Sequence record: ON075799
Length of the DNA stretch: 64,000 nt
Source: Escherichia phage vB_EcoM_TH18
Direction: 5' to 3' (one strand)
Shown: positions 6,786-64,000 of the stretch, in pieces
Layout of the letters: every line of letters begins with the position of its first letter
Position numbering within the stretch: position 1 is the first letter of the stretch
Position numbers and translations under genes: made by a program
The notes under the pieces: generated by a model
Databases searched by the model: none
What the model was told of the DNA's origin: nothing
Seen by the model: the letters and a program-made list of their open reading frames with translations, nothing else

Positions 6786-6826
6786 TAGCAGCAGCCTTAA
6801 TGTCTGCTTTTTATAAGGATACCTAA

Positions 6827-9675: not shown

Positions 9676-9846
9676 TGGCTTTAATTGTTTCTACAACACA
9701 CACAACTGTAGAACGTGGTATGTTAAAGGCAAAGTGTGACACAATTATTTTTGAAGATGAAGAACAGGGCAGAAAGTTTATTGAAGACAATAAAACATTT
9801 GTGTACTCTGTTCAGAAAGCACCTATTGTTAAAGAGAAACAAAACA

Positions 9847-10188
9847 ATGATTACAATTAATGGTAATACAATTTCTGGAAACTATACCAATGGTAGTATC
9901 TCTATCACTACTAAGGGTGATAATGTATATATCAATGGTGATTTAGTTCACACCACAAGCGATAAAAACATCACAGTTATTATCAAAGGTGATGCTAAAG
10001 AGGTACGTACAACATCAGGTGGTATCAATGTCTATGGAAATGTCTCTAATGGCGTGATCTCAACATCTGGGGATATTAATGTTGAAAAAGATATCTTAGG
10101 CAATGTGTCTTCAGTGTCTGGGGATGTCTGCGCAAATACAATCCATGGAAGTGTGAACACAATATCTGGAGATATTACCCATCGTTAA
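9847..10188 (+). CDS. small repeat protein with beta-solenoid-like periodicity
   Basis: 113 aa of reiterated 'SG(D/G)INV...GNVS' units; start chosen at internal ATG 9847. Confidence 0.45.
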   Translation: MITINGNTISGNYTNGSISITTKGDNVYINGDLVHTTSDKNITVIIKGDAKEVRTTSGGINVYGNVSNGVISTSGDINVEKDILGNVSSVSGDVCANTIHGSVNTISGDITHR

Positions 10189-10202
10189 CAGAAAGCCCCT
10201 TT

Positions 10203-10748
10203 ATGGGGCTTATTTGTCTGGAGTTAGTTTTGAAAATAAGATCTTTATTATTTGCTGTTTGCTGTGCACTTTCTCTGTCTATTACCCCTGTTCTAGCCAA
10301 AGAAAGTGCAAAGAAGCCCAGAGTTCTTCATGTTTGTAAGAAGAACGACACAGAGCTTAATATTCTTGCCTGCAATATGTATAAAGAAGGAAGAGGCGAA
10401 GGCGATTATGGAATGATGGGTGTTGCGTTTGTCACGTTGAACAGAAAGGATGACAAAAATTTCCCTCATACTATCAAGAAAGTAGTTTATCAACTTGGGC
10501 AATTCTCTTGGACATTCGGTGGACAATCCTTTAAAGTCTATGAAAAGGACAGATGGTTGAGAGCTAGATTTTATGCTAAAATCTTGATGAGGTTGCATAA
10601 AGACCACAAAAGTTTATACAAAGCTCTTGACTACACAAAATCAGCAACGTACTATCATGCAACTACTGTTAGGCCATCTTGGGCAAAAGTTATGGTGAAA
10701 ACAGTGAAGGTTGGGAATCATATTTTTTACAAGCATCCTGACGTATAA
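10203..10748 (+). CDS. secreted SleB-like cell-wall hydrolase (Hydrolase_2 family), endolysin candidate
   Basis: N-terminal signal-like hydrophobic segment; 'KEGRGE...GMMGVAFVTLNR...FPHTIKKVVYQLGQFS' SleB signature. Confidence 0.6.
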   Translation: MGLICLELVLKIRSLLFAVCCALSLSITPVLAKESAKKPRVLHVCKKNDTELNILACNMYKEGRGEGDYGMMGVAFVTLNRKDDKNFPHTIKKVVYQLGQFSWTFGGQSFKVYEKDRWLRARFYAKILMRLHKDHKSLYKALDYTKSATYYHATTVRPSWAKVMVKTVKVGNHIFYKHPDV

Positions 10749-10768
10749 CTAGTTCATAGAGGTATTGA

Positions 10769-12769
10769 ATGATTATTCAAAGATCTGACAACAAAGTTCA
10801 GGTAACTGGGAACGTAGAAAGATACCAAGCATCAATTGCAATGAATCCTGAGACGTTCAGTATTCTTATCGACGGAATTTATAAAGATAAACCTTTAGCA
10901 GCAGTACGAGAGCCTCTCTTTAACGCTGTAGATGCCCATACAGAGGCAGGGTGTTCTGATAAACCAATCATCATCCACTCACCAACAGACTTGGAGCCTT
11001 GGTATTCTGTTAAGGATACAGGGTTAGGTATGGATCATGAGATGGTAACACGTACATTCATGATGATTGGTGAGTCCACAAAAAGAAACAGTAATGATCT
11101 GGTTGGTGCGAAAGGTATTGGATCAAAAGCACCTCTTGCAGTCACAGATATGTTCACAGTTGTTTCTGTTAAAGACGGAGTGAAAACAACATATTCTGTT
11201 CACAAAAACAGCGGAATACCAGAGGTTGTACCTTTATTCTCTTGTGAAACAACAGAGGAGAATGGTGTAGAAATTAAATTTAACGTAAACACTTGGGAAA
11301 CAGGAGTTTATCGTCAGGCCATTGTAAAATGCCTTCGCTATGCTAAATTTCCATATATTATTAATGATCCTTTTGTTAAAACGCAGATTGAAGATCGTAC
11401 TTATCCTGTTCAGTATCGTTATGAGGATGAAGAGACTGGCTGGGTTCTTGAGATGTATAGTAGCATGTCGAGCAACGCTGATAGTGTTGTTATCATGGGG
11501 CAACAACCATATCTCTCCGATTATCTCTCAACTCGTAAAGAACTGCCCATGATGACGGTATCTATCCCTATTGGGGATTGTAATGTAGATCCAGGCCGAG
11601 AATGGACAGTGGAAGGAAAGAATGACGGAGGATTCCGTGATAAACTTGAAAATTTTGTGACTAAAGCTATCCGACTCCGCGGAGAAGAAATCACAAAAGA
11701 ATTAAGCGATCTGCCAACTTTAAAAGCAGTTCTTGAACATATGAAGTATGTTGGTGGTTATTTCGCTACAAAGTATGGTGCTGCATTTATTGCAAATAAG
11801 TTCAAGAATTATACTGATGGTTCTTACATAGACCACTGTGAAACATATGGTGGCGAAGGCTCACGCCGTGGTAAGGATGAGAAATATTCATACGCAGAGT
11901 TGATGAATGGTCATCCACTGGTTTACAATGATGATCACAAGTATGTGCGCTCTAAATGTAACTGGCTTGCAGAGAAGTTCGGTAAGAGATCGTTTATAAC
12001 CGATGCTGATTACGCTCTGTCCTTATACAGTGATAAATTCTTTGAAGGGATGATTTTCAAGTTATCTGAGCTTGAAAAACGACCAGTGCAAAAAGCAGAT
12101 AAAAAGTATGGTGGCTATGGTTATTACGAACCTGGTCATAAAGTTTGGATAATTAACCAAGATGGCCTCGTAGATGTAACACGTATTTCCCGTGCTCAAT
12201 TCGAGGATATTGAGACGGCTATGGTCTACTGGGGTGGGCAGGTGAAAGGATTATGCCCGTTAGGATACGTTTCCAATCTTAGAACAGTTTGGAGAAAGCA
12301 ACCACCAACATTTCTTAAGAATCTTGGTGTAGCTGGTAAGTTATATATTGTGCCTTTAAACAGATCAAGTTGGCTGCCAGATGAGGCGCGGGTTATAACT
12401 GAGGAGGATATCCATGCTCTTGCAAAAACTAATCTTCTTGAATATCATTTATACCAAGAAGTTGGGAAAGATCATGAGTATCATAACATTGTTAAAGAGC
12501 TTAGCTATTTTGGTGTGGTGGTAGCTAGTTTCCCAAAATGGGAGATGAAGGTAAACATACCCAGTTATTATTCAGTCCCTGGCTACGAAGATAGCCGTGA
12601 GAAAGCATTAGGGATGATTGAGTCTCGGAAGAGAATTGGTAAAAAGCTGCTACAGATTAAGAAAGATCGCTACCCATTGTTAAAATACATTGATGTTAAG
12701 CATTTCAATACTCCAGAGATGCTAGAGTATCGTAAATTTATTGACAGCAAAGGAGAAAAAGATGAGTAA
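10769..12769 (+). CDS. rIIA: rIIA-like protein with N-terminal GHKL (Hsp90/histidine-kinase-like) ATPase domain
   Basis: Bergerat motifs 'EPLFNAVDA', 'DTGLGMD', 'GAKGIGSKA'; followed by rIIB-like gene. Confidence 0.6.
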   Translation: MIIQRSDNKVQVTGNVERYQASIAMNPETFSILIDGIYKDKPLAAVREPLFNAVDAHTEAGCSDKPIIIHSPTDLEPWYSVKDTGLGMDHEMVTRTFMMIGESTKRNSNDLVGAKGIGSKAPLAVTDMFTVVSVKDGVKTTYSVHKNSGIPEVVPLFSCETTEENGVEIKFNVNTWETGVYRQAIVKCLRYAKFPYIINDPFVKTQIEDRTYPVQYRYEDEETGWVLEMYSSMSSNADSVVIMGQQPYLSDYLSTRKELPMMTVSIPIGDCNVDPGREWTVEGKNDGGFRDKLENFVTKAIRLRGEEITKELSDLPTLKAVLEHMKYVGGYFATKYGAAFIANKFKNYTDGSYIDHCETYGGEGSRRGKDEKYSYAELMNGHPLVYNDDHKYVRSKCNWLAEKFGKRSFITDADYALSLYSDKFFEGMIFKLSELEKRPVQKADKKYGGYGYYEPGHKVWIINQDGLVDVTRISRAQFEDIETAMVYWGGQVKGLCPLGYVSNLRTVWRKQPPTFLKNLGVAGKLYIVPLNRSSWLPDEARVITEEDIHALAKTNLLEYHLYQEVGKDHEYHNIVKELSYFGVVVASFPKWEMKVNIPSYYSVPGYEDSREKALGMIESRKRIGKKLLQIKKDRYPLLKYIDVKHFNTPEMLEYRKFIDSKGEKDE

Positions 12770-32186: not shown

Positions 32187-34130
32187 TCACGCCACATTAA
32201 TATTAAATTTCGCCAACGGCGATGTAATGTCACCTTTACTGGTTGTTTGAACATATGCAACACCAAATAAAACCGTACCCGCAGCATATCCGTATTGTTT
32301 TACTTGATCTGCGTGGGTAAATGTGTAACTATTAGTGGTCAATGTTTGTTGAGATATAACATCCCCTGTCAGGACATCAAAGTTAACAAGGGAGAACTTG
32401 TTATAATCTCTGGTATCCCATGACAAAAGAATGTCTTGGTTAGCTTGTCTTACTGCCTTTCCTCCACTAGGAACTTTCATATCCACCCAAGCAGGAGGTG
32501 TGCTCGACAAGTCTTCCATGTTAGCCAAGGATATCGCAGCATTCTTATAAATTGTTGGTCGGTACTGTATTCTTAAACCATTACCTGCCCCAGAAACAAC
32601 ATAATTGCCATAGTCTTCAGCACCATCAACCCAAGAGCCAATTATAACGTCGCCATTGGAATCTGCCACCAACTGTTGTTGAATATTTCTATAACGATAC
32701 CACTCAACACCACCTACCTCAACACTACCATCAAAGCATCTACCAAGAGTCTGCAATACAATCTTGGCTTCTGGGTTTGCAATAGCAGAACGGATATTAT
32801 CAAAGATTGCGGTCATAGCAGACTGAAAACGAGCATCATCGCTATGTTTCCCTTCTTCTTTTGCTGCTGCCACCATAGCATCTTGCTCTCCTAACGACCA
32901 GAAAACAGCCTTAATTTTATCCTTATAAGGTTTAACCTTCGCAAGGAATTGTGTTAGACATGGACCTGCTGTGGAGGAACTAACGTCATACCAGTAATTT
33001 GTGGCTGGCCCTGTAGAGGAGTTTGCCTGTGCTTCTGCACAAGATGCAATGAATGTGGCATTTATTGGTAATACCTCTGCTGGGTAAAACCCTTTGTGAA
33101 GAGCATACTCATTACGTGCTACGGTTGCACTTTGGCTTGTTTTGTCCCTACCGGAAAAAGAATTAAAATGCGCTGCTGCGTTATCGCCGCCAGCAAAAAC
33201 AAGCACCTCTTTAACAAAAGAGTCGTCAACAGTAACATTATTATTAAAAGCTATAGGTATTGTTTCTGGATTTGATCCTTTGATGTGCACAATAAGATAT
33301 GTAGGGGCAAATCCAAAGATAGGGACTGACTCTGTAACATCAAAGAATACAAATGTGTCTTTGGTTTTCTTACTCCACACAACCTCCATCCCCTCAGAGT
33401 CATAAACCTCTACGGTATAAATATCATCCGAGGAGGGAAATTGAACATCCCACGCTATCTTAATGTCACCATAGCTGTTGGCTACAGCAGTAGGATTTGT
33501 AAGTGCTGGAGCTATATCTACATATACATCGGTAAGTGTCGTTACTATCACATCTCTATAGGTTCCTTTCATACCACAATGCCCGACACCTCTACCAGCA
33601 CATGTAATGATACCACTAGGAGCCAGACTTAATACATCAGGTGTTTCAGAAACTGCGGTGACATAAAAATCATCATCCTCCATAACTTCTGCTGGAGAGA
33701 TGTTAAAGCCAATCATATTCCTATTCGGATTGCCTGGGTCAAAAGACGGGTCGCCTTTATAGACAAACCAGAATCTATCTCCAACACTTCTACTGCCTAT
33801 AGGATCAACATCAATGCGTAATGTGTCAACATGACCATTGATTTGTGCTGTCAAGGTCTTTTCTTCATCTCCTTTACCCGTCTTTGCAGACATTGTAATG
33901 ATAAAATCACCATCTTCAAGAAAAGATACTAACCCTGTAGGGTCAACAGATACAATCGTCGGTTTGTCTGGTGTAAACGTTATATCATGCAAGTCTGCAC
34001 CTTCCGGCACAACAGACCATATTAATTGTGCTTTGCCTCCTTTAAGACACGTACCGAGGGAGGTTAAGGAAACGGAGTTGGCTAGAGGGTTATTGGAAAT
34101 AATGATATAAAAACAAGGAATTGGATACAT
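32187..34130 (-). CDS. tail fiber/tailspike protein, possibly with carbohydrate esterase-like domain
   Basis: 648 aa from ATG 34130 (RBS AGGAGG); position in fiber cluster; esterase call is weak. Confidence 0.45.
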   Translation of the reverse strand: MYPIPCFYIIISNNPLANSVSLTSLGTCLKGGKAQLIWSVVPEGADLHDITFTPDKPTIVSVDPTGLVSFLEDGDFIITMSAKTGKGDEEKTLTAQINGHVDTLRIDVDPIGSRSVGDRFWFVYKGDPSFDPGNPNRNMIGFNISPAEVMEDDDFYVTAVSETPDVLSLAPSGIITCAGRGVGHCGMKGTYRDVIVTTLTDVYVDIAPALTNPTAVANSYGDIKIAWDVQFPSSDDIYTVEVYDSEGMEVVWSKKTKDTFVFFDVTESVPIFGFAPTYLIVHIKGSNPETIPIAFNNNVTVDDSFVKEVLVFAGGDNAAAHFNSFSGRDKTSQSATVARNEYALHKGFYPAEVLPINATFIASCAEAQANSSTGPATNYWYDVSSSTAGPCLTQFLAKVKPYKDKIKAVFWSLGEQDAMVAAAKEEGKHSDDARFQSAMTAIFDNIRSAIANPEAKIVLQTLGRCFDGSVEVGGVEWYRYRNIQQQLVADSNGDVIIGSWVDGAEDYGNYVVSGAGNGLRIQYRPTIYKNAAISLANMEDLSSTPPAWVDMKVPSGGKAVRQANQDILLSWDTRDYNKFSLVNFDVLTGDVISQQTLTTNSYTFTHADQVKQYGYAAGTVLFGVAYVQTTSKGDITSPLAKFNINVA

Positions 34131-34146
34131 TACTCCTCCTAAAACA

Positions 34147-34166
34147 AAGGCCACAACTGTGGCCTT
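34147..34166 (-). terminator. intrinsic terminator/attenuator between fiber genes
   Basis: AAGGCCAC-AACT-GTGGCCTT then TTTGTTTT on minus strand. Confidence 0.45.
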
Positions 34167-34171
34167 TTATA

Positions 34172-35926
34172 TTATGGTTGTGGTCTGCGGACAATAACAG
34201 TGTCAACAACCCCATCTTCAACACCATTAAATGTCAATTGAAGGATGGTAACTGAATTTGCTGCTGTATTAACAGTTTCACTGTTAAGGACAACATAATT
34301 AGGATCCAGAGTTATACTGTGTCCACCTGTGGCATCCTGCGTCAGATAAATCATAGCGGAGAAAGGTTGTTGTGGGTCAGGCCATGCTCCGATTGTCAGA
34401 TTCTTATTCACTGTGACATTATAAATGTTGGATGTGCCACTTGGTGTCCATGTTGCCGTTGGGTCGCCAACTTCTTCCGATTGTAAAGTTAGGAAACCCA
34501 CATTGGTGGAAGAAAGTTGTGTCTGACCGTTAACAAATAACTGATTTGTCGTTACACTATTTTGGGAAGAGAGAGATGCTACGTTAACATTCTGACCTGT
34601 TAAATCAATCGTAATACCGGATACAGTTCCCTTGACAATCAAATTGTTTACTGTCGTTGTGCCAGAAGATCTATTTAAGACTACATCACCATCAGAGACA
34701 ATTTTACCAAGGTTAGAAGTTCCGTTAACCGTCAGATCACCGTCTACAGATCCGTCGCCAGTCGCAGTGAATCCCTCCCCCAAAGTTAATAGCCCTGTGA
34801 CATTACCAGTTGTAGAGGAGAAATCTTTGAGGCTGGCTTGCCCATTAACAACAAGGTTGTTAGTAACTTCTAAGCTCTCACATGTTGTACTGTTGAGATT
34901 GGTATTACCATTGACTTGTAAATCACCACCTACAGTAACCCCTTGTGCCGTTGTTACAGAATTAGGCGAGATATCTTCCCCATTGACAGAAAAAGAAAGT
35001 CCTGTTACAGTACCTGTAATCTTTAAGTTTTCAAGCTCTGTCATCCCAGAAACTTTAAGACGAGCTTCAGAGGGGTCTTTTTTAGAGTTGCCTGTAATAT
35101 AAACATAGTCGAAGGTATTATTACCAAGACCTGTGAAAGACATTGTTGTATTGTCTGCTACTGGCACACCGTTTATAATGATGTCTGTATGTAGCTGATG
35201 TGTCTGCGCTGAGTATGCTTCAAGCCTTGTTTTTATAAACGTCGGGTTAGAATCATCACTGTAGGCAAAAGATAAACTTGAATTATCTTTTGTTAAGATA
35301 AGATTCTGGAATTTTCCTGTTTGATTGTCAGCGTTAACAGGCCCATTAAATGTTGATACACCGCCAACAGAAAGCGTATTAAGACTCGCTAAACCTGTTA
35401 CAGTAAGATCCGCGAATGTACCATTTCCACCCGCAATCCCAGCTAAAGCAGTAGCAATAGCTCTAGTAACGAATTGTGTTGTTGCTAGTGTTGTGCTGTT
35501 ACTATCTGCTGATGGTGTTGGTGCTTGAGGGTTCCCTGTAAAGATAGGACTGTCAATAGGCGCAAATAGTTGCGACATAGATTCTGAATCGTTGTATAAT
35601 CTCCAGTTAACATTGTTGATCGGGTTAGAAGGCAACACCACCGGAGAGCTTTCAGTTGCACCGGGGGCATACCACCATTGGACACCTCTTTCCCCTGTAT
35701 AAGCATACAACTGATTAAATACTGTTGCCTGTTGCCCAGCAACCCACGGCAGTGGAGGTGTTTTAAAGAATAAATTGTCAAAAAATGCTTTTCTGACTGT
35801 AGGTATCAGACTACCATCCTCTGTAACTACAGTTTCAGTTGCTGTTCCATTGACAATTTTATGAAGGCGTTCAGAATCTTCTACAACCTGATCTACCGCC
35901 TGTTCAAATTTAGTCATGTCCGCCAC
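34172..35926 (-). CDS. tail fiber protein
   Basis: 'SPIFTGNPQAPTPSADSNSTTLATTQFV' conserved fiber N-region motif; Gly/Thr/Asn/Ser-rich repeats. Confidence 0.65.
   Translation of the reverse strand: MADMTKFEQAVDQVVEDSERLHKIVNGTATETVVTEDGSLIPTVRKAFFDNLFFKTPPLPWVAGQQATVFNQLYAYTGERGVQWWYAPGATESSPVVLPSNPINNVNWRLYNDSESMSQLFAPIDSPIFTGNPQAPTPSADSNSTTLATTQFVTRAIATALAGIAGGNGTFADLTVTGLASLNTLSVGGVSTFNGPVNADNQTGKFQNLILTKDNSSLSFAYSDDSNPTFIKTRLEAYSAQTHQLHTDIIINGVPVADNTTMSFTGLGNNTFDYVYITGNSKKDPSEARLKVSGMTELENLKITGTVTGLSFSVNGEDISPNSVTTAQGVTVGGDLQVNGNTNLNSTTCESLEVTNNLVVNGQASLKDFSSTTGNVTGLLTLGEGFTATGDGSVDGDLTVNGTSNLGKIVSDGDVVLNRSSGTTTVNNLIVKGTVSGITIDLTGQNVNVASLSSQNSVTTNQLFVNGQTQLSSTNVGFLTLQSEEVGDPTATWTPSGTSNIYNVTVNKNLTIGAWPDPQQPFSAMIYLTQDATGGHSITLDPNYVVLNSETVNTAANSVTILQLTFNGVEDGVVDTVIVRRPQP
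35514..35554. repeat. 41-bp exact DNA repeat (copy 1) shared with 58173..58213
   Basis: GGTGTTGGTGCTTGAGGGTTCCCTGTAAAGATAGGACTGTC, encodes 'DSPIFTGNPQAPTP' on minus strand. Confidence 0.8.
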
Positions 35927-35936
35927 AAGAATCTCC

Positions 35937-36200
35937 TTATTGGTCTGACTCTTCTCTACGTTGTGATTCTACACCCCAGCGTAGGGATATTAACTTACTT
36001 ATTAACTGTGGAGCAGCCACTGTGGGGGCATACACCCACATATACCACTCCGTTAATGTGCCTTTGAAACCCCAATCTAAAAAAACTGCTGTCATTGCAG
36101 CTAATCCGATATTACTCCAAAATTTAGTGTGGGAGGCCTTTTCTGGATTTACTGGGGATCTGACAAGATCTTTTAAAAATTTCAATATTGATTTTAGCAT
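35937..36200 (-). CDS. small membrane protein (holin-like topology)
   Basis: 87 aa, hydrophobic segments then charged C-terminus 'ESQRREESDQ'. Confidence 0.4.
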   Translation of the reverse strand: MLKSILKFLKDLVRSPVNPEKASHTKFWSNIGLAAMTAVFLDWGFKGTLTEWYMWVYAPTVAAPQLISKLISLRWGVESQRREESDQ

Positions 36201-36215
36201 AATACATTAGAATCC

Positions 36216-36689
36216 TCAATAATTTACTCCAGGAACAATTCTGGCTATAATTATGAAACCAACAACAACAGAAGTCTCAAGCAATTCTTTTATTGTACCG
36301 CTTTTGTATGCGGCGCATAATAAAAGAACTTCCATAAATGTTGGATATGATGAATTTATCGTGAAGCCTAATGCGTTTGGTAAAATAAATGGGAACTGCA
36401 TAACTAAAATTTGGCAAAACAGAACAGGAAGAGATAGTACAAGCATTAGCTTTTTTCTCCATCCTGTCAAAACACATGCAGTAAAGAAAATCAGAGATAT
36501 ATCAAGGAACCAACAGAAAGTTAGGTAGAGTGACAAGTCAAATGCGTAGATATGGTAACAGAACCACCAGTATAATATATTCTCTGACACGATATGAACC
36601 ATGCCAAATACTGACATGGCTCGGATCCCCTTATCATTATCAAGAAGTAGCACTGCAAAGCATATAAAGTACAGTGCAGAACTTATCAT
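36216..36689 (-). CDS. polytopic membrane protein
   Basis: 157 aa with about four hydrophobic helices. Confidence 0.5.
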   Translation of the reverse strand: MISSALYFICFAVLLLDNDKGIRAMSVFGMVHIVSENILYWWFCYHIYAFDLSLYLTFCWFLDISLIFFTACVLTGWRKKLMLVLSLPVLFCQILVMQFPFILPNALGFTINSSYPTFMEVLLLCAAYKSGTIKELLETSVVVGFIIIARIVPGVNY

Positions 36690-37000
36690 TTCATTTGGCT
36701 CTCTATAAGAATTTTAAGTTGATCTATAAGATCAACTCTCAAACTGCTCACATCCTCTTTTAAATCTTTTCTAAAATCTGAAACATCGTCGCGGACAGCT
36801 TTCAGCTTTTTATCAAGAATCTCATCAAGTTTCTCTTTAGTGACCATCTCTGCCTTAATTCTTATGATGTCCCTATCAAGTTCATCAAGACGTTGTTGTG
36901 TCTTTTTATAGTCTGAGTATGTTAACTTCAGAACACCAACTAAGAAAAACGTCAATACGCCCCATACGGCTTTTAAGATAGCAAATAGGTCAATAGACAT
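36686..37000 (-). CDS. membrane-anchored coiled-coil protein (i-spanin-like topology)
   Basis: N-terminal TM 'LFAILKAVWGVLTFFLVGVL' then charged coiled coil. Confidence 0.45.
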   Translation of the reverse strand: MSIDLFAILKAVWGVLTFFLVGVLKLTYSDYKKTQQRLDELDRDIIRIKAEMVTKEKLDEILDKKLKAVRDDVSDFRKDLKEDVSSLRVDLIDQLKILIESQMK

Positions 37001-37011
37001 TCTTTAGCTCC

Positions 37012-37596
37012 TTAATCAACAGATGGTCTTAGAGGCCACTCTATGTTTGGGGCATCCTCTGTTTTAATGCTTAGTATTTCACAACGATACATCTTCAGTT
37101 TCTTAAGCGTGTCCTCCATGTGTTTCGGTAGTTTTTTACCTGTTACCTGTTCATAGTCCCCATATGTTTGGATATATTGACTTGCCCAAGCAATTTCCTT
37201 ATCCTTGCGGAGTTTTGCTTCCTGTATAGATCGAAAATAGGTATAAGCAAATTCTCCATCTTTAAATGCCACGTCACCGAGGTCATACTCAATGCCTTTA
37301 GGCAAATTTTCTACCGAAACAACGGCTATTTTCCATCCGCTGAAAGGAGTACACCCATCAAAACCTTCATAGCAAACGCAGCAAACCCTATCGTCGAGGT
37401 CCAGCGAAAGAAAGGCATATTTTCCCGGATCTATTTGGGAGTTCAATTCTTCTGCTATTTCATAATAGTCTTTCCCCGTGGATTCTTCGTAGAAAAAAGG
37501 GGCGAAAGGGTTAACTTCCAACAATCTTTTCGTGGCTCCTGTTGCATTATCAGGGAGGGGAGAATAAGGGAAAAATGGTCCAAATATTTTGTTCAT
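37012..37596 (-). CDS. hypothetical protein (possible tail fiber assembly factor)
   Basis: directly downstream of fiber gene; no motif. Confidence 0.35.
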   Translation of the reverse strand: MNKIFGPFFPYSPLPDNATGATKRLLEVNPFAPFFYEESTGKDYYEIAEELNSQIDPGKYAFLSLDLDDRVCCVCYEGFDGCTPFSGWKIAVVSVENLPKGIEYDLGDVAFKDGEFAYTYFRSIQEAKLRKDKEIAWASQYIQTYGDYEQVTGKKLPKHMEDTLKKLKMYRCEILSIKTEDAPNIEWPLRPSVD

Positions 37597-37613
37597 GCAA
37601 CTCTCCTGAATGA

Positions 37614-38708
37614 TTACACTCTACTTACGTTGTGCCAGACACCATTAACTTGTTTCTGGATGTATGCATAGTAAACCCCACCAATGTTGTCTGCTGAGTT
37701 TTTACCAACATCTTGAGGATAGATACCTGTCATAACTGCACCCGCTGGCGCTTGCCAGTTCCAAGATATTTCGTTACCACCGGGCCAGTACCATGTGTTA
37801 CCTGTTAATCTAACATCTTGAACACCACCTGTTTGGATATTGACATTGCCGTTACCATCTGCACCAACACCATTAACAGATCTTACGATATTTCTCCCAG
37901 CAACTGTAGCAGAGTTATTATTTACAATTAGTGCATTTACGTTTGCTGTCCCATTAACTCTTGCAGATGGTGTTGTTAATGAGCTTGTTGCTACAACAGT
38001 CTGACCTTGAATTTGTCCTGTAGCCGTCAAAGAGGATGTTCTTGTTGTGGTGAATGTTGCATTTGTGCCATTAACATTTGTTCCTTGTACAGTGCCTGTG
38101 GCAACAACATTTCCTGTTACTTTACACAAAGCCGCTGAGGAGCTAATAGCATTAAGCTCCATCATAGTAAACATCCCAGAGTTACCTGAAGGAGAGAATC
38201 GGAAACGTATAGAATCTACACCGTTTGTCCCTGCTGTTCCTGGATTATCTCCAAGAACAAAATCCCAGTACGTCCAGTCAGAAGCTGGATTCGTAGTTGT
38301 GATATACGCAGTATCTGTTTCAGAAGGTTGAAAATTCAATCTCGGCAATGACAAAGCTCCTGTCATTGTATCTCCCGTTACATTCACGTAACGGTTGTCG
38401 GCTTCTGATCTACTCCACACATCAAGGTTGATTCTGGATGTTTCCTTGTCAGCTAAATCAGACAGATTTTCACTTCTTCTTAAAAATCTTGTATCTAATT
38501 CAGGTATCTGATCTCCTGTAACATATTTTATCCAACTTGTCATCATATAAAGAACATAGTTAAATTCTTCACAAGCTGGTTTTTCTCCCATATCCCAACC
38601 TTTTAACCAAAGATCGTCAATAGGTCTTATTTTATTCTCCCCATGAGTATTAGGGAGAATCACATCTCCCGCTGCCCAAATCTCGATTGGTATACTTGGT
38701 ATAGCCAT
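37614..38708 (-). CDS. tail fiber protein
   Basis: 'VTGDTMTGAL' fiber motif, Thr/Gly/Asn-rich C-terminal region. Confidence 0.6.
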   Translation of the reverse strand: MAIPSIPIEIWAAGDVILPNTHGENKIRPIDDLWLKGWDMGEKPACEEFNYVLYMMTSWIKYVTGDQIPELDTRFLRRSENLSDLADKETSRINLDVWSRSEADNRYVNVTGDTMTGALSLPRLNFQPSETDTAYITTTNPASDWTYWDFVLGDNPGTAGTNGVDSIRFRFSPSGNSGMFTMMELNAISSSAALCKVTGNVVATGTVQGTNVNGTNATFTTTRTSSLTATGQIQGQTVVATSSLTTPSARVNGTANVNALIVNNNSATVAGRNIVRSVNGVGADGNGNVNIQTGGVQDVRLTGNTWYWPGGNEISWNWQAPAGAVMTGIYPQDVGKNSADNIGGVYYAYIQKQVNGVWHNVSRV

Positions 38709-53415: not shown

Positions 53416-53934
53416 TCAATAATACCTGTGTTTTGGGTATCTCCGAGGAATACCGGGGACTCCTGTTTGAGGAACTATACCAGAAACATCAAACGGGCTT
53501 CTGGAGTTTGGATTGTTCTTGACACGCCAAAACTCATCCTGCCGCACACCACCCACAATAATCAAACCAGAGACACCATTCAGACAACTATTGACGTAAT
53601 CAGGGTTTTGCAGTAGCCAGTCCAGAAAATCTTTCCAGTTCTGGTATGACGAGCCACCTTTCACCTGTATTGTCTCATCACCTATCTTTTCCAATCTTTC
53701 TGTGATGGATGCCTCACCAGAATTTATCTCTTGAAGAATTAACCATCTTAACACAGCTACCATTGTGTTATAGACCACTTTCCACATATCGCAGGGCGTA
53801 GATGATGGATTAGGCCAGTTTGCTCTTTTTTTCTCCATCTCAAGGAATGCCATAATAACTTCATCAGGTAATGTCTCTGGGGATATTGACCCGAGCAGGA
53901 GCCTGATGTAATCAACAATTTCTTGGTCTGTCAT
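53416..53934 (-). CDS. head-tail connector-like protein (hypothetical)
   Basis: position. Confidence 0.35.
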   Translation of the reverse strand: MTDQEIVDYIRLLLGSISPETLPDEVIMAFLEMEKKRANWPNPSSTPCDMWKVVYNTMVAVLRWLILQEINSGEASITERLEKIGDETIQVKGGSSYQNWKDFLDWLLQNPDYVNSCLNGVSGLIIVGGVRQDEFWRVKNNPNSRSPFDVSGIVPQTGVPGIPRRYPKHRYY

Positions 53935-54006
53935 CTAACTCTCCATTCTATGTTACTTGTTAGTAACTATATTATCACAAAATACAATTTTTGTCATTAA
54001 AAACGC

Positions 54007-54034
54007 TTGACACGAAAAATTCCACAGGTAAGAT
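54007..54034 (+). promoter_or_regulatory. sigma70-like promoter for plus-strand moron
   Basis: TTGACA-N16-TAAGAT upstream of RBS GGAGG and ATG 54062. Confidence 0.5.
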
Positions 54035-54061
54035 AAGTACAACAATTGCTATGGAGGATTT

Positions 54062-54466
54062 ATGAAAAATATTTTAAAAATTACAATTGGCCTGTGCGTC
54101 TGTGCTGTTATTGCAGCGGGAACTCTCCAATATGTGAAAAAGAACCCAGACATTAATGATTATAAATCTGTCGAGGCAAGTTGGTTGTCGCCAGAAGAAA
54201 AAGATGAGGCAATCAGCCGTATTGTGCAATTATCTTGCGATAAAAGATTCAGAGAAGCATTTAAGCCAGACGTTATTGTTGTGTCATCAGGCTTTGAAGG
54301 CAGGATCGCAGAGCAAGCGGAAGCATATCAATATTTTGATGATGTCGCAATTATCTCAGGAAAACAATCTTACACTGGAAAATACATCTGTACTTTTTAC
54401 AAAGATGGGCGTGAACCGTATATTAATGCAAACTTGAATAAGGGAGTACAAGAACTCCTAAAATAA
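54062..54466 (+). CDS. small secreted or membrane-anchored protein encoded by an opposite-strand moron in the late region
   Basis: 134 aa, N-terminal signal-like 'MKNILKITIGLCVCAVIAAG'; own promoter and terminator. Confidence 0.55.
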   Translation: MKNILKITIGLCVCAVIAAGTLQYVKKNPDINDYKSVEASWLSPEEKDEAISRIVQLSCDKRFREAFKPDVIVVSSGFEGRIAEQAEAYQYFDDVAIISGKQSYTGKYICTFYKDGREPYINANLNKGVQELLK

Positions 54467-54467
54467 A

Positions 54468-54488
54468 AGACCCCGAAGGGTCTTTTTA
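54468..54488. terminator. bidirectional intrinsic terminator
   Basis: AGACCC-CGAA-GGGTCT followed by TTTTT; A-rich on the other side. Confidence 0.6.
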
Positions 54489-54746
54489 TTACGACATAAT
54501 ACCAGCGGCTTTCAACTTGGCAAGCAAAGCATTAAAATCACTTACCAACGTAGAGACATCTGAAGCCATAGAATCTGCTTGTGTTTGTGCTTTCTTAACA
54601 CCTCCTAATGCCGATTCCGTAGCCGCTGGAAGAACATAGCTATCTGAGCCTCCAGCAACAATATCTTCGATTTTCACAGATTTTCCAGTTTTTATATCAA
54701 TAAGGCTTGATGCATATACTTTACCAGCCACACCTGTAGTTGCCAT
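54489..54746 (-). CDS. small fiber-related protein (N-terminal module paralog)
   Basis: 'MATTGVAGKVYASSLIDIKTGK' parallels N-terminus of 57110..58360. Confidence 0.45.
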   Translation of the reverse strand: MATTGVAGKVYASSLIDIKTGKSVKIEDIVAGGSDSYVLPAATESALGGVKKAQTQADSMASDVSTLVSDFNALLAKLKAAGIMS

Positions 54747-54756
54747 AATTATCCCC

Positions 54757-56547
54757 TTAGTTGTTTAGATAAGAATATTGCAAGAAATATTTAAATTCGT
54801 GGACTTGTTCGTCCGCTCCTGCAATAGGAATGATTCCATTAAGTCCTGATAAACCGTCTCCACGAAGAAGTTTAGTTATTACCTTCGTCTTAGGATCAAT
54901 GGTATGCGTAGGGACTGTTGGTAAAATAAGCCATACAGCCACTGTAGGTTGCCCTGATCCGACAACACTTGGATATTCTGCATAGATATCATAATCAAGA
55001 TACGTACCGTCTTCCGTACAAGGTATCTCTGTCAAACGAACATCCACCATAACATCTGTGCTGCCAGCAGGTGATCTGTTCAAATAAACTGTTGTTTTCA
55101 AATATATAGAAGACCCTGATCTTCCTGCTGCGTTTTTCGCTGAAGGTATGTCACTATAATTGAAAGAGAAATTCCCAGATGTTGCTGACAACCTCATAGT
55201 CGGCTGAGGAGAAAATGGGATATTAAAGCTCGCTTGTTGACTTGAATCATCTGTCATTGTAAAAGTTAGTGTAACCTGTTGTGCACTATCTATTTCTTTA
55301 ACAACAGCATTAACAGATTTTATTGTTTGTCCATCAGCACCTTTAGGAATACCTAAGTTAAGAACTTGTGAAGGGGAATCACCAGTTATTGATGCGGTCG
55401 CCTGTTGCCCACTTTGCAAAGAGGAAACTGTGCCGATAGATAGTGAATAGGTGGCAGAACTTCCTCCAAGGTCTACCCAAGAAACAGGGGTACTAGGGTC
55501 TGAGCCTCTAATTGTATACTTAACACTACCATCCGCGCCATAAAACAAGATCAACTTACTTGCCGTTGCTGAAGTTTTATCGTTTTGCCAATTATCTAGC
55601 CATATTATTTCAAATACGCCAGAGTTTGCTGGGGATTGTATATGGGCATAATACCTCCCCGGCATGGTCTGATTGGCAAGAGAAGCGATCTCATCAATGT
55701 TTAGCAACGATAAGGTGACACCATCACTCGCTGCCATACCGTACCCAAAACTTCCCGGTATGGCAGCAACACCAGCCGTGCGATCATGAATATTCGCTTG
55801 TTTGGCAGTTAACAAATCATACCACACTGCTGGGTCACTTAGATTGTTACCACGGATCGTATATTTCATATGACCGTCTTTACCAAAAAAGAGAACCAGC
55901 TTTGTTGCTGTCTGGCTTGTTTTGTCACCCCAGCCATTATCCAGCCAGATAATTTCTGTTATTCCTGTCATTTCCTCCGATTTTGTGGTGAAAGTATAAT
56001 ACCTTCCCGGATGTAAGTTATGGGCAGAACGCGCAACATCACCAAGACTGTTAGCAATAAGTGAAGTTCCTCCAGGATTTGTCATTCCGTAGCCGAAAGC
56101 GCCAGGCAAAGCTGCAACACCAGGTGCAGAATCATAAAGCCATTCTTGCACTTTGGTAGGAGCAACATACAACCCCTCTTCTCCTTCAGAGGTTATATTT
56201 GTTAAAGCGTTTCCTTCTTTAGGAGAAATCGGAATATTTATTTCAGGTGCTGTTACATATAATGCTCCTTGCTTCAACTCCAGCAGGTTATTTGCAGCAG
56301 GACTCACCTTAACAGCTAACCCATTATCTCCAGCTTGGAGAGCATTATTTTCATCTTCTGCCACCACAACAACACCTTTAAGAGGTGTAGCTTCTCCCCC
56401 ATCACCTAATAATTTAAGCGTGAGGGTATCTTCCGTATGCAACTTAAATTTATCTCCGAGTGTACCGCCAGAAGTATCTATACTATAACCGTTAGGTAAG
56501 ATAACTTCAGCATTTACAACTTTATCTTTATAATCCATAACTACCAC
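54757..56547 (-). CDS. fiber / receptor-binding-like protein with internal tandem domain duplication
   Basis: two ~110-aa repeats '...PG(A/S)FGYGM...PGRYY...EIIWLDN...KYTIRG...'. Confidence 0.5.
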   Translation of the reverse strand: MVVMDYKDKVVNAEVILPNGYSIDTSGGTLGDKFKLHTEDTLTLKLLGDGGEATPLKGVVVVAEDENNALQAGDNGLAVKVSPAANNLLELKQGALYVTAPEINIPISPKEGNALTNITSEGEEGLYVAPTKVQEWLYDSAPGVAALPGAFGYGMTNPGGTSLIANSLGDVARSAHNLHPGRYYTFTTKSEEMTGITEIIWLDNGWGDKTSQTATKLVLFFGKDGHMKYTIRGNNLSDPAVWYDLLTAKQANIHDRTAGVAAIPGSFGYGMAASDGVTLSLLNIDEIASLANQTMPGRYYAHIQSPANSGVFEIIWLDNWQNDKTSATASKLILFYGADGSVKYTIRGSDPSTPVSWVDLGGSSATYSLSIGTVSSLQSGQQATASITGDSPSQVLNLGIPKGADGQTIKSVNAVVKEIDSAQQVTLTFTMTDDSSQQASFNIPFSPQPTMRLSATSGNFSFNYSDIPSAKNAAGRSGSSIYLKTTVYLNRSPAGSTDVMVDVRLTEIPCTEDGTYLDYDIYAEYPSVVGSGQPTVAVWLILPTVPTHTIDPKTKVITKLLRGDGLSGLNGIIPIAGADEQVHEFKYFLQYSYLNN

Positions 56548-57113
56548 CCAACTTTTATCCTTTGTAATTCCTCAACTGTAGAGGCTGAAAGCACTTGGTC
56601 TTTCATTTCTCGTTGCTTAGTGTATATTGAATCATTCTTAGTTGCCAACTCGGAAGACATAGCTACAACAAAATTTTCAAATTCAGAACTACTCATCTCA
56701 ACAGGTTTGTTATCAGCATCTCTCCAAATCACAGCTTGTTTAGCCGGAGATGCTTTTTGTGCTAATAATACTGGATAAATACGACATAAGGTTGCATTAT
56801 CAACATCATACCTTGCACCATTATAAGAAACAATAGTCGTAGAGCTTTCTTCCAGTTTTCTCCACTCTTTTATTTCTGATAACATCTGTTGCTTTAATGC
56901 CTCGATAAATTGAGGGTTTGCTGTATACGGGGCAATCTCTCCAAAACTACCAGATTGTAAGGAATCCCAAACTGCTTTCCCAGTTTCACTATAGTCGTTG
57001 CTAGAAGCGGTGTATGGGAGATAATCAGAAAAACCATTAAAAAGTACCAGACAATCAACGTCACCATTAAGAAGATATTGTGGAGACTTAATATCTTTAA
57101 TATCCAGCATCAT
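56541..57113 (-). CDS. hypothetical protein (fiber-associated)
   Basis: 190 aa between two fiber genes. Confidence 0.4.
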   Translation of the reverse strand: MMLDIKDIKSPQYLLNGDVDCLVLFNGFSDYLPYTASSNDYSETGKAVWDSLQSGSFGEIAPYTANPQFIEALKQQMLSEIKEWRKLEESSTTIVSYNGARYDVDNATLCRIYPVLLAQKASPAKQAVIWRDADNKPVEMSSSEFENFVVAMSSELATKNDSIYTKQREMKDQVLSASTVEELQRIKVGW

Positions 57114-58360
57114 GCGATCCTCATAAAAAGACCAATATAACCTGTATCAGTACCATTTTTATTGCTTGGTGAACCGGATAAGGCTATAAACGTACCTCGC
57201 TGTGTTTCAGTACTGTGTGTAACAGAAACTGGCGTACTTTGAAATGCACCTGTTGTGGAAACCTTACTATAAAGAGTTATACAGCCTATGCGGGAACCTG
57301 GGATGGTCTGACCACGAACAAGTTTTCTGTTTGAATCAGTGTTCGAAGCGCCAAGATACACTCCCAACATCACCCCTCCAACATCAGGACTTCCCCATGT
57401 GTTTCCTACGGTTGATTGTAAATAGGAGAATTGTCCTTTTATATTTACCCAATCACCATCAGCAAAACTGGTTAGTAAGCGATAATAATACAATTCACCA
57501 TTTATGCCATAAAAATAGGCATGTTTACTATTTTTTGCTGCTTGCTCTGCATTCTCTGCTGGATATGGTGACAATACCTCAACCATACCTTTAAAAGTAA
57601 TCCCTTCAATAATACGTGTGTCACCTGAAGATAAATCTTGGTGAACAAGGTAACGACCAGGTTGTGCACTTCTCAACCAAGAAACCCATTCCTCTGGCCC
57701 ATTCTTCTCTTGAAAAACAACTTCTTTCTCGGCAGGGATAAACGCCCCAAAACCAAATGCCCCTGGTAAAGATACTACCCCATCTGTGGCATCATAGATA
57801 TCGTTTTGTACACCTTTTGTGGCAGCGGTTTTTATACCCAAGTAATCAAGAACCCCAGTTTTTGAATCTTGCCCTATGATAACTCGACCAACAGCAGAGA
57901 GATTTGCCAAAGCCATTACGTTTTTATCACTGAAATAAGCTAATTTATTTCCAGCAGTAATCAATCCTGACAAAGATGTCAGTATTTCACTCAACGGTTG
58001 TTTACCAGCAAGAGCGTTAGTGATTGTTGTTGCAAAGTTCGGGTCATCGCCTAATGCCTTCGCTAATTCATTGAGAGTATCTAATGTTTCAGGCGCTGAG
58101 TCAGCCAATTTTGCAATTAAACCCTTCACATATTCTACATTAGCTATTTCCTTTCCAATAGCATCATCCAACGGTGTTGGTGCTTGAGGGTTCCCTGTAA
58201 AGATAGGACTGTCTAAAGGAGCTTTGGATGCAATAAGATCCGTTATATCTTCTGGAATATTCCCACCACCCAACTCATCAAAATTTATTTTCTTTCCTGT
58301 TTTCTGGTCAACCAATGCACGACCATAAATTAAACCACCAACACCTGTTGTTGCTGTCAT
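57110..58360 (-). CDS. fiber protein
   Basis: 'DSPIFTGNPQAPTP' motif and a copy of the PGAFG...PGRY domain. Confidence 0.55.
   Translation of the reverse strand: MTATTGVGGLIYGRALVDQKTGKKINFDELGGGNIPEDITDLIASKAPLDSPIFTGNPQAPTPLDDAIGKEIANVEYVKGLIAKLADSAPETLDTLNELAKALGDDPNFATTITNALAGKQPLSEILTSLSGLITAGNKLAYFSDKNVMALANLSAVGRVIIGQDSKTGVLDYLGIKTAATKGVQNDIYDATDGVVSLPGAFGFGAFIPAEKEVVFQEKNGPEEWVSWLRSAQPGRYLVHQDLSSGDTRIIEGITFKGMVEVLSPYPAENAEQAAKNSKHAYFYGINGELYYYRLLTSFADGDWVNIKGQFSYLQSTVGNTWGSPDVGGVMLGVYLGASNTDSNRKLVRGQTIPGSRIGCITLYSKVSTTGAFQSTPVSVTHSTETQRGTFIALSGSPSNKNGTDTGYIGLFMRIA
58173..58213. repeat. 41-bp exact DNA repeat (copy 2) shared with 35514..35554
   Basis: identical 41-mer inside second fiber gene. 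Confidence 0.8.
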
Positions 58361-58389
58361 TGCTTAACTCCTTGAAAAAAAAAAACATT

Positions 58390-58899
58390 TTATGATGCTT
58401 CTAATTCAGATTTAAGATCAGCAATCATCTTTTCAAAGGATTTGTTTTTAGTTAGTGTAACACCTTTAGAAAGTGCAAACTCAACTAATCTATCTTTACT
58501 ACCTTTTTTATCAGCTTCATCATTCAGAGACATTGCTTCCTCTAAAATCAGATCAATAGATAGATTTTCTTTATCAGCCTTTTTATCTTGCACTTCTACA
58601 ATCTTGGCATCAACTACCTTACCCAAGTTTTTCGGACTAGGGATATCTTTGTTGAAGAACACGATATAAGATCCCATACGAATAGTAGAGTGCTGTGCAT
58701 CAACATCTAAACCAGACAGCTCTGCAAGAGCAGTGAAAAACTCAACAGTGTTTCTGAATGCTTTGTGTTGTGTTCCCACACATAAACCGTTCAAAGGTAG
58801 TCTTGCTGAGACCGCTGCATTTAATTGCGGGGCGTATGCACCAAAAAACTTAAATAATTCCACCTTATTAGGGAAAATACGATAATTTTGATTCGCCAT
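58390..58899 (-). CDS. hypothetical protein
   Basis: 169-aa ORF downstream of capsid gene. Confidence 0.45.
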   Translation of the reverse strand: MANQNYRIFPNKVELFKFFGAYAPQLNAAVSARLPLNGLCVGTQHKAFRNTVEFFTALAELSGLDVDAQHSTIRMGSYIVFFNKDIPSPKNLGKVVDAKIVEVQDKKADKENLSIDLILEEAMSLNDEADKKGSKDRLVEFALSKGVTLTKNKSFEKMIADLKSELEAS

Positions 58900-58980
58900 A
58901 AAATCTCCTTTTATTCCTTAGTAAAAACCACTTCACACCACAGGATAAGCGGCTATTATTAAGGCCGGAATGTGAAAAAA

Positions 58981-59004
58981 GGGGAGGTGATAATTCACCT
59001 CCCC
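58981..59004 (-). terminator. strong intrinsic terminator after major capsid gene
   Basis: 10-bp stem GGGGAGGTGA-TAAT-TCACCTCCCC followed by T6 on minus strand. Confidence 0.65.
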
Positions 59005-59030: not shown

Positions 59031-60044
59031 TTATTCGAAAGTACCAGTAGAACGTACAACCAGTTCAGGACGGGTGTTAACCGTCAAGAAGGAAGTTTCA
59101 GATTCAACTTTCTCTTCACGCAGATATGCAGAAGATTTGTACCACAGATACAGTTCTTCAGCTACAGTGTTTGCTTCACGAGCATCATCTGCCGGAGCAT
59201 AATGGATCTGGAACATATCATCAATACCTTGCGGCAGGATGTATGCTTCACCATCTGGGATATATCCAGAGATGTCTTCAATGTAGGTTACGTTCTTGTG
59301 AACAAACATACGGTTGTTGGCATTCTCAGAACCCATACCCAGACGACGACGCAGCGGCTCTTGGGTAGAAGAATAATACTGGTATGCATTCATGATCAGC
59401 GGATGGGCGATCAGAGCAGAGAACCATTTACGAGAAGCCAGAACAATGATATTGTAGTTATTACCGTTATCACCTGCATTGTCGATGATGTATGCGCGAG
59501 CGTCTTTCTCAATCAGGTCAGACGGGTCAACCGCAACATCTGTGAAGTTGATATTGGCAGTGTGCTGGGTAACTCCCCACTCAGTAAAGTAGTTGTACTG
59601 TGCGGTAGGATCTTGTGGAGACCATGATTTACCCATGATTGCCTGAACCATTGCTTTTTCTTTCAGTTGTTCATGAGAAACGCGAATACGCTTAACTACG
59701 CGAGCAACTACGTCTTCAACAGTTCTAGGAGCGTCCGTAGTGAAGTATTTACGGAAGTTCTGAACATCTGCCGCAGTGATCTGACGATCCAGAGGGAAGA
59801 ACGGAATGTTGAAGTTCTTGATTTGGGCTTTTTCACTACCAACATAGTTACGTTCTCCACCACGACGACGTGCAGGAATATCCGCAACAATTTCGTCAAC
59901 ACGCTCAACACGAGCAATTGTGGTTTCACCATGATAAGCGGTGAACAGATCCATGTTGGTAATCAGGCGATACTGACGTGGAACAAGTTCCAGTGCTGCG
60001 CCAAGGTTTACGATTTGAAAGTCGTTAGTCTGTACTGCTGCCAT
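59031..60044 (-). CDS. major capsid protein (lambda gpE-like head module)
   Basis: 337 aa, preceded by decoration/scaffold-like genes, followed by strong terminator. Confidence 0.5.
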   Translation of the reverse strand: MAAVQTNDFQIVNLGAALELVPRQYRLITNMDLFTAYHGETTIARVERVDEIVADIPARRRGGERNYVGSEKAQIKNFNIPFFPLDRQITAADVQNFRKYFTTDAPRTVEDVVARVVKRIRVSHEQLKEKAMVQAIMGKSWSPQDPTAQYNYFTEWGVTQHTANINFTDVAVDPSDLIEKDARAYIIDNAGDNGNNYNIIVLASRKWFSALIAHPLIMNAYQYYSSTQEPLRRRLGMGSENANNRMFVHKNVTYIEDISGYIPDGEAYILPQGIDDMFQIHYAPADDAREANTVAEELYLWYKSSAYLREEKVESETSFLTVNTRPELVVRSTGTFE

Positions 60045-60067: not shown

Positions 60068-60490
60068 TTAGCTGATAGCCGTTACTTTAATATCTTCAGA
60101 ACCATCGTAATATTTATCGGTGATTTTCAGACCTCTTGCCTCAAGAGCTTTAATAGCAGTCTCGTCAATTCCAGTAGAACCATCAGAGAACACAATCTTG
60201 GACTTATTCAGAGTAAGGCCACGAACAGCAACAACAAAATTATATTTAGTTCCTACTTGGAACGGGGTAACAGGTTCGTATGCAGGTACAAGGTCATGGT
60301 CAACCAGAACACCATAAGCCTGAGCAGCATCACCAGATGCAGCCAGAGTACCGTCTTCTTTAACGATCATACCAGCTTTCATACCTGCTGCGTACTGAAT
60401 CTCCATTTCCTTGAAGCTATAGCCTTGGTCAGAAGAATCAACTTTACCCAGTACAATGTCAGAGTAGAAACCTTGAATTGGATTAGCCAT
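60068..60490 (-). CDS. head decoration-like protein
   Basis: 140 aa immediately upstream of capsid gene. Confidence 0.4.
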   Translation of the reverse strand: MANPIQGFYSDIVLGKVDSSDQGYSFKEMEIQYAAGMKAGMIVKEDGTLAASGDAAQAYGVLVDHDLVPAYEPVTPFQVGTKYNFVVAVRGLTLNKSKIVFSDGSTGIDETAIKALEARGLKITDKYYDGSEDIKVTAIS

Positions 60491-63774: not shown

Positions 63775-64000
63775 TTATATTCTTTTATACAAGGTAGGAG
63801 CTACAATTTTTGGAATAACAACAGGTTTGACTATTTCTTCTTTTTCAAGATAATTTATCCCAGAAGAAATGGCGTCGACCCAATCGTCTTTTCTTGTCGT
63901 TGTACTCCTTTCCCCATTGAACTTTTCAAGCTCTGTCATAAGGGCTTCATAAGTTTTAGGATCAAAACTATCACGAACTATTCTCACCATACCTGCTTGA
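63775..64000 (-). CDS. 3' end of a larger gene truncated by window edge (likely terminase large subunit C-terminus)
   Basis: reading frame open to position 64000; '...RKDDWVDAISSGINYL' ; position upstream of portal. Confidence 0.4.
   Translation of the reverse strand, partial: QAGMVRIVRDSFDPKTYEALMTELEKFNGERSTTTRKDDWVDAISSGINYLEKEEIVKPVVIPKIVAPTLYKRI

Follow-up and report, generated by a model that had tools for sequence, protein, structure and literature searches.

A shared N-terminal peptide on a small head fibre and a prophage-derived fibre in the second fibre locus of Escherichia phage vB_EcoM_TH18

Why does a phage with one set of fibre genes beside its baseplate genes carry a second set between the genes for its head and those for its neck, and on which part of the virion would the products of that second set sit? 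We consider this for Escherichia phage vB_EcoM_TH18, of which a stretch of 64,000 nucleotides (sequence record ON075799; hereafter the window) was analysed. The phage is an Avunavirus (Vequintavirinae), and the 5 kb at 54000-59000, used as a query, are 100% identical to Escherichia phages 18-1-2, 19-1-2 and 24-2-1 and ~90% identical to Av-05. The first fibre set (32187-38708) adjoins the baseplate genes. The second lies, as the initial annotation had it, between head and neck modules, with the major capsid protein (MCP) gene at 59031-60044 on the minus strand on one side and an adaptor-like gene at 53416-53934 on the other. A decoration protein is encoded at 60068-60490. The second set consists of four genes, whose open reading frames (ORFs) had been placed correctly, all on the minus strand: a chimeric fibre of 416 aa (p416, 57110..58360), a Tfa-like tail-fibre assembly chaperone of 190 aa (p190, 56541..57113), a mosaic fibre (p596, ORF 54757-56547) and a small head fibre of 85 aa (p85, 54489..54746). 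The part of this locus worth pursuing is an N-terminal peptide common to p85 and p416, here called the anchor, by which both proteins may be held on the capsid.

The likeness between the 85-aa product and the N-terminus of p416, first noticed in the sequence itself, is borne out by alignment. Residues 2-32 of p85 match residues 3-33 of p416 with 14/31 identities (45%, pairwise E 1e-7, BLASTP), and when the p85 N-terminus was compared with all six-frame fragments of the window, p416 was the only match (E 7e-6). An independent profile hidden Markov model, made from the N-termini of head fibres in other genera and leaving out every Avunavirus sequence, agrees: it finds p85 (E 1.3e-13) and p416 (E 6.4e-11), the next match in the window standing at E 0.42. 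Both proteins carry the motif M-A-T-x-G-V-x-G-x-V-Y-x-x-x-L-x-D-x-x-T-G at residue 1. The anchor occupies residues 1-33 of p85 (54648-54746, minus strand) and residues 1-41 of p416 (58238..58360, minus strand), which begins MTATTGVGGLIYGRALVDQKTGKKINFDELGGG. Six-frame and profile searches detected it in no other ORF of the window, baseplate-proximal fibres included. The suggestion of an adaptor module therein thus survives in altered form, as a docking peptide shared by two N-termini and not as a separate adaptor protein.

Behind its anchor, p85 resembles known head fibres. It scores 64.5 bits against PF11133 (Phage_head_fibr; cut-off 24.6, E 1.4e-17), a match that covers only profile positions 212-277 of 277, and residues 34-85 make up a phi29-type helix-turn-helix tip. 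Among solved structures in the PDB, residues ~28-85 match phi29 gp8.5, crAss001 gp21/gp29 and Shigella phage B2 gp45 (E 9e-10 to 1.5e-8) through the pattern LPxAT..LGGVK ... helix ... AGI; for all of these proteins a capsid location is known from experiment. Of these, B2 gp45 is a 99-aa homotrimer at the quasi-sixfold axes (PMC11654681). The likeness lies in the C-terminal tip and in size, p85 being close to the 97-99-aa proteins of crAss001 and B2, whereas the N-terminal capsid-binding parts of these proteins are unrelated to the 33-aa anchor of the Vequintavirinae clade; residues 1-27 of p85 gave no alignment to gp8.5, whose N-terminal capsid-binding base comprises residues ~1-70. A further difference is that in this clade the anchor of p85 also bears long fibres and an enzyme. 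Homologues of 84-138 aa stand at the same genomic position in Seunavirus, Mydovirus, Henunavirus and related metagenomic contigs, five other genera keeping the gene in that place, and the p85 gene has a strong Shine-Dalgarno sequence and a terminator of its own. Judged by its sequence, p85 appears to be an intact and conserved phi29-type small head fibre, not the remnant that the initial annotation had thought possible.

In p416 (phrog_2636, E 2e-81) the anchor stands in front of parts of a different origin, namely a shaft of the side tail fibre (Stf) type, followed by a knob (rep3) and the tip of an Stf. The whole of residues 42-416 is matched by the C-terminal ~380 aa of the ~1035-aa Stf proteins of prophages, at up to 46.6% identity (37% with residues 630-1061 of the Rac-SA53 Stf), and the central shaft resembles P1 gpS and lambda Stf. 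The prophage alignments start only at residue 42: in place of the N-domain of the prophage fibres, p416 has the 41 residues that match p85, and a Pfam search gave no PF08400 (Stf N-domain) match in p416 or p596. Directly downstream lies the gene for the cognate Tfa chaperone, p190 (PF14301 (DUF4376), E 1e-12; phrog_1141, E 8e-67), which is 40% identical over 185 aa to tail4/Tfa of Rac-SA53 (E 9e-55). The lambdoid or Rac-type pair of Stf and Tfa (Rac-SA53 tail3/tail4) is homologous in shaft, knobs, tip and chaperone to p416 42-416, p596 ~103-344 and p190, and differs in that the PF08400 domain and the coiled-coil region are missing from the window proteins, and in that the Stf-derived parts are here shared out between two genes, with their order reversed, and grafted onto lineage-specific N-termini. 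A 37-residue shaft motif also occurs in the homologue of the baseplate long fibre (34172-35926, minus strand; residues ~136-172), where it is 57% identical to p416 residues ~46-83; the motif is widespread in tail fibres, including P1 gpS and lambda Stf, and marks another potential site of recombination between the two fibre sets.

How far does the anchor extend beyond this phage? A word-indexed search with the 40-aa anchor alignment, whose 61 candidates came down to five short fragments, gave way to a complete HMMER search through 1.84 billion representative proteins. This returned 24 proteins with the anchor, 48-587 aa in length, in which it always occupies residues 1-~40, and all of them belong to this phage clade. 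The cargos behind it are phi29-type tips, Stf tips, collagen repeats, a tail-needle knob, the C-terminal domain of p596 and the exopolysaccharide (EPS) depolymerase of Hena1. The last is a genuine depolymerase homologue (phrog_4250, E 6e-167; PDB 6tgf), and its anchor was detected (E 1.1e-7) by a profile that includes phiTE_217 and Avunavirus sequences and from whose training set it was absent. In each anchor-bearing locus the profile matches the last small protein, including phiTE_217, whose C-terminal domain is unrelated.

The genes concerned sit between the MCP and Inh genes and the adaptor gene, in a locus that varies across the subfamily. Only the Inh gene separates MCP from the next conserved gene in the rV5-like phage I29, and in phi92 the adaptor gp126 lies two genes past the MCP gp124. 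KB57 has a small protein there in addition to a head fibre; in Seunavirus loci a 214-aa protein accompanies a collagen fibre and a head fibre; phiTE has genes 215, 216 and 217; and Hena1 has a capsid fibre followed by the EPS depolymerase. The placing of tail-fibre cargo on a head-fibre anchor is modestly new. Through the shared peptide a phi29-type head fibre is connected with a 'tail fibre' of prophage origin and with the depolymerase of a sister genus. We regard it as possible, if short of probable, that throughout the clade (Avunavirus, Seunavirus, Certrevirus, Mydovirus, Henunavirus) this ~35-residue peptide is a general anchor for capsid display, with the small head fibre as default cargo, and that it has repeatedly captured tail-fibre tips together with chaperones, and also collagen stalks, a tail-needle knob and an EPS depolymerase.

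As to where the anchor docks, p416 may sit on the capsid and not on the tail because its N-terminal peptide is that of the small head fibre. In our estimate there is about an even chance that p416 and p85 are accessory fibres docked on the capsid through their shared anchor, and that the locus is a late, capsid-linked cassette of exchangeable modules. The anchor would then be a virion-docking peptide, its site most likely the centre of the MCP hexamers; p85 trimers would decorate most hexamers, p416 trimers would compete with them for a share of the same sites, and the head would gain a few long fibres with receptor-binding tips of the tail-fibre type, which could aid reversible adsorption. 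T4 Hoc is an adhesive head decoration that shares with this the idea of capsid appendages aiding reversible surface binding. Hoc-like decorations have immunoglobulin-like or dedicated domains, whereas the cargo here would be complete tail-fibre tips with their chaperone, or a depolymerase.

Indirect evidence for such a site comes from phiTE, where pTE217 ranks fifth in abundance among the virion proteins and was provisionally identified with an unmodelled 'Pagoda' density at the hexamer centres (PMC11972413). Its gene, phiTE_217, occupies the position of p85 as the last gene before the adaptor, after a large fibre, and the protein bears the same N-terminal anchor motif; its C-terminal domain (phrog_20253) is unrelated to the phi29-type tip of p85. 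The virions of CB7 contain homologues of phiTE_215, 216 and 217, so that a relative of pTE217 is virion-associated there as well. The head of phi92 was modelled with MCP and a cement protein only, and its genome has no room for such a locus between the MCP and adaptor genes. In the window, the N-termini of two proteins in the first fibre set, of 584 aa and 364 aa, match the long and short baseplate tail fibres of phiTE (E 5e-87 and 3e-33; PDB 9cuy), while p416 and p596 gave no PDB match to the baseplate-docked N-termini of 9cuy.

Several points weigh against a capsid site. Neither by structure nor by labelling has an anchor-bearing protein been located on a capsid; the place of pTE217 was itself assigned only from its abundance, and the Pagoda density could not be modelled (PMC11972413). 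A peptide of 33 aa is a small anchor, and the shared N-terminus could instead serve as a tag for trimerisation or assembly, or dock at a site on the neck or baseplate. phiTE also has an unmodelled 'third putative fibre' near its baseplate, which may be phiTE_215, a relative of the p596 N-domain, and all public annotations label p416 a tail fibre.

That label would be right if p416, p190 and p596 were conventional side fibres of the baseplate whose genes had been inserted at a permissive site between head and neck, in which case the similarity of p85 and p416 would be a recombination scar or a generic trimer-nucleating tag. We think this unlikely, if far from negligible. In its favour, genuine side tail fibres have homology to the greater part of p416 and to the middle of p596, a Tfa chaperone is present, every record's annotation says tail fibre, the third baseplate fibre of phiTE is without an assigned gene, and several fibres on the baseplate are a known trait of Vequintavirinae such as phi92 (PMC13450770). 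Against it, the PF08400 domain of the prophage fibres is missing and the anchor is found exactly in its place; the docking N-termini of both modelled baseplate fibres have their counterparts in the first gene set, and the anchor goes undetected in the fibres of that set as in the other ORFs of the window. A retained functional module also fits better than a scar because the anchor turns up at residue 1 each time, in several genera and in front of no fewer than five unrelated kinds of cargo.

The genes lie directly upstream of the adaptor and neck genes, which would suit an anchor whose dock is the neck, the collar or another fibre and which gives whisker-like or branched fibres in place of a capsid decoration. 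The T4 whisker gene wac likewise adjoins neck genes, and branched fibre assemblies occur in related large myoviruses. This arrangement is nevertheless improbable, since the evidence from phiTE suggests hundreds of copies against the few tens of a neck site, and neither 'collar' nor 'whisker' is mentioned in the main text of that study (PMC11972413). Docking on a large fibre of the p596 type in particular can be ruled out, as KB57 and two related contigs (L011 and L012) keep their anchor proteins and lack its N-domain. Scarcely credible, finally, is an account in which p85 is the decaying remnant of a longer fibre gene and the tandem repeats of p596 (rep1 and rep2) arose by a recent duplication in situ. 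It is true that p85 is short and shares only its N-terminus with the neighbouring fibre, but homologues of 84-138 aa are kept at the same position in six genera, the PF11133 match and the solved capsid proteins of 97-99 aa with the same tip speak for a complete protein, and so do its strong ribosome-binding site and terminator. A recent tandem duplication, for its part, is ruled out by the pattern of identities, rep1 being 70% identical to prophage knobs and 49% to rep2, together with the absence of any repeat at the DNA level.

The repeats themselves are real. In p596 residues 121-245 (rep1; 55804..56166, minus strand) and 246-380 (rep2; 55459..55812, minus strand) share 56/115 identities (49%, E 5e-37), and the third copy seen in p416 (rep3, residues 181-305; 57446..57820, minus strand) is likewise significant, with 31% identity between rep2 and p416 residues 185-292 over 108 aa (E 5e-11; both BLASTP). 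What misled was the word duplication. At the DNA level the copies have nothing in common beyond 15-nt matches and are therefore old, and database searches with p596 returned hundreds of ~1035-aa Stf proteins (PF08400 and PF03406) from prophages of E. coli and Salmonella, at 43-50% identity in the repeat region. A domain profile found three copies in 92 of 119 retrieved Stf proteins, and the order in the Rac-SA53 Stf, to which p596 residues ~103-344 are homologous (47% identity over residues 106-344), is shaft motif, knob A, knob B, shaft motif, knob C, tip. The repeated unit would thus be, on its sequence, a fibre knob domain that is a stock module of prophage Stf proteins; among the closest systems are the trimeric-fibre knobs of the R2 pyocin fibre (6cl6), Mu gpS (8ju3) and staphylococcal phage receptor-binding proteins.

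The individual copies have different affinities. rep1 is 68-70% identical to knob A of the prophages, with a DNA match of 87.5% over 152 nt; rep2 is a divergent orphan of the same type, 45-49% identical to rep1 and to the prophage knobs and without a closer counterpart among the retrieved proteins; and rep3 is 35-48% identical to knobs B and C of Rac-SA53. Close relatives of p596 have one or two knobs, of differing types, between conserved N- and C-domains (alignment A1), and at the position of rep2 they have another knob type and a linker. As rep1 is nearer to prophage knobs than to rep2, modules have been acquired or replaced in a variable middle region, and recent duplication does not explain them.

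The conserved ends of p596 set it apart from p416. The ORF of 596 codons is present as first described, although its likely start is the ATG at 56538, which gives a protein of 593 aa beginning MDYKDK (probable gene 54757..56538, minus strand), as in GenBank and 19 homologues. Its N-domain of ~124 aa (56167..56538, minus strand) is a second and different putative docking module. Over residues 2-127 it is 52-56% identical to PVP-SE1 gene 69, 4MG and Cronobacter phages, and residues 57-129 are 40-44% identical to phiTE_215 and CB7 (CB7_10); it is common to the large collagen-like fibres of Seunavirus and Certrevirus, the collagen repeats occurring in those partners. Neither phiTE_215 nor phiTE_217 is among the PDB chains, so that phiTE_215 is neither of the modelled baseplate fibres of phiTE. 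By its N-domain p596 could be a third baseplate fibre, or it could dock at another site on the head or neck.

The C-terminal domain (~233 aa; 54760..55458, minus strand) is kept in every relative and has a predicted all-beta fold. It has weak similarity to proteins of Serratia and Erwinia jumbo phages and no solved relative, a profile of alignment A1 having given nothing meaningful against PDB sequences. An AlphaFold2 model of full-length p596 from 24 sequences (mean predicted local distance difference test score 39.6) was unreliable in this domain and was not used for a fold search. In one recombinant protein (P0020) residues 223-464 are 89% identical to this domain, which is there placed on an anchor of the p416 type. 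A separate observation concerns PHROG 21621 (103 positions), whose first 50 positions match the anchor of phiTE_217 (residues 1-49) and whose positions 30-101 match p596 residues 376-444, in the first C-terminal sub-domain; from these two matches the family is an anchor with a small p596-type domain, as in the protein P0145.

Exchange between the two fibre genes can be seen in two related contigs, where a single gene, made up of the anchor and shaft of p416 and the back half of p596, stands in place of p416, p190 and p596. Recombination between both fibre genes therefore does occur. In the longer recombinant protein the similarities to p416 and to relatives of p596 overlap across the knob, which the shorter one lacks, and the conserved start of the knob domain lies in the region of the switch. 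The shuffling of modules among host-recognition proteins, proposed from the letters of the sequence, is thus strongly supported by the likeness of p416, p190 and rep1 to prophage Stf, Tfa and knobs and by these natural recombinants, but it is ordinary for phage fibres.

Two further records show unusual arrangements. An Avunavirus-like contig (L015, European Nucleotide Archive ERZ27280404 k141_255333, 5516-12670) carries genes for MCP, Inh, an anchor-Stf fibre and Tfa, followed by bacterial genes for Usp, a porin and pyruvate-ferredoxin oxidoreductase. These bacterial genes are a possible flank of a Rac-type prophage, because a uspF gene flanks attB in the Rac-SA53 record. The contig is either a chimeric metagenome assembly, joined through near-identical stf/tfa DNA, or a real recombinant, and both ways it points to very recent sequence sharing between virulent phage and resident prophage. 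In Av-05 (L002, NC_025830) the p596 homologue is split into the overlapping ORFs Av05_0079 and 0078 (6710-8678), the C-domain being frameshifted, and from 10535 onward genes for a DprA-like protein, a protease and a methyltransferase lie upstream of the p416 homologue in place of Inh and MCP, which is a rearrangement or a misassembly relative to the phage studied here.

If the anchor is a capsid dock, several 'tail fibre' annotations in this phage group are wrong, the genes being those of head fibres, and host-range predictions made from them need care. Phage heads in this group would be fitted with appendages that bind receptors or degrade glycans, the anchor would offer a compact natural tag by which trimeric proteins could be displayed on a T=13 capsid, and the unmodelled hexamer density of phiTE would receive a testable explanation in sequence. 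Independently of docking, the locus illustrates clearly how a virulent phage trades fibre modules with the cryptic Rac-type prophages of its host.

The four genes also share their transcriptional setting. Just 3' of the MCP gene lies an intrinsic terminator on the minus strand (58975..59004), read from the sequence as GGGGAGGTGA-ATTA-TCACCTCCCC followed by TTTTTT, and phiTE has an annotated terminator at the equivalent position; the fibre genes downstream of it would be reached by read-through. The reading frames of p416, p190 and p596 overlap or abut, and the start of p190 overlaps the stop of p416 (ATGA), which suggests translational coupling of the two. A bidirectional intrinsic terminator at 54460..54487, also read by eye as AAAAGACCC-TTCG-GGGTCTTTT followed by a T-run, closes both this transcription unit and that of a convergent membrane-protein gene, and terminators are annotated on both strands at the equivalent place in PVP-SE1. 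From the terminators 3' of MCP and 3' of p85, together with the overlapping frames, the four genes form the tail end of the head transcription unit. Automated scans were uninformative here: 22 sigma-70 promoter sites were found against 18.7 expected, and a simple terminator scan gave 7 terminator-like sites against 4.5 expected and missed both terminators visible by eye.

On the other side of that terminator, the convergent gene (54062..54466, plus strand) encodes a 134-aa membrane protein (phrog_11434, E 6e-65) whose position is kept in four genera and forms the boundary of the locus; past it come the adaptor-like gene and the neck, sheath and tube genes. In the records of 18-1-2, 19-1-2 and 24-2-1 it is labelled 'adenosine deaminase', probably a mis-annotation, since only the phage membrane-protein family phrog_11434 matches and the protein has an N-terminal hydrophobic segment.

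The first gene past MCP, kept in all relatives, is that of a 169-aa Inh-like protein (58390..58899, minus strand; phrog_3259, E 6e-54), and genes of identical length in related contigs carry PF26097 (Phage_Inh_N). Its C-terminus matches the T4 Inh-like protease inhibitor family, and its first 26 residues (58822-58899) match phrog_37914 (46 positions, E 1e-16), a PHROG that bears the label 'major head protein', and may be a shared N-terminal targeting or cleavage peptide. At the end of the window the large terminase gene is apparently interrupted (63775-64000; L001 15776-17001), a 261-aa terminase fragment being followed by an HNH homing endonuclease gene, and the terminase of phiTE is likewise split around an HNH gene.

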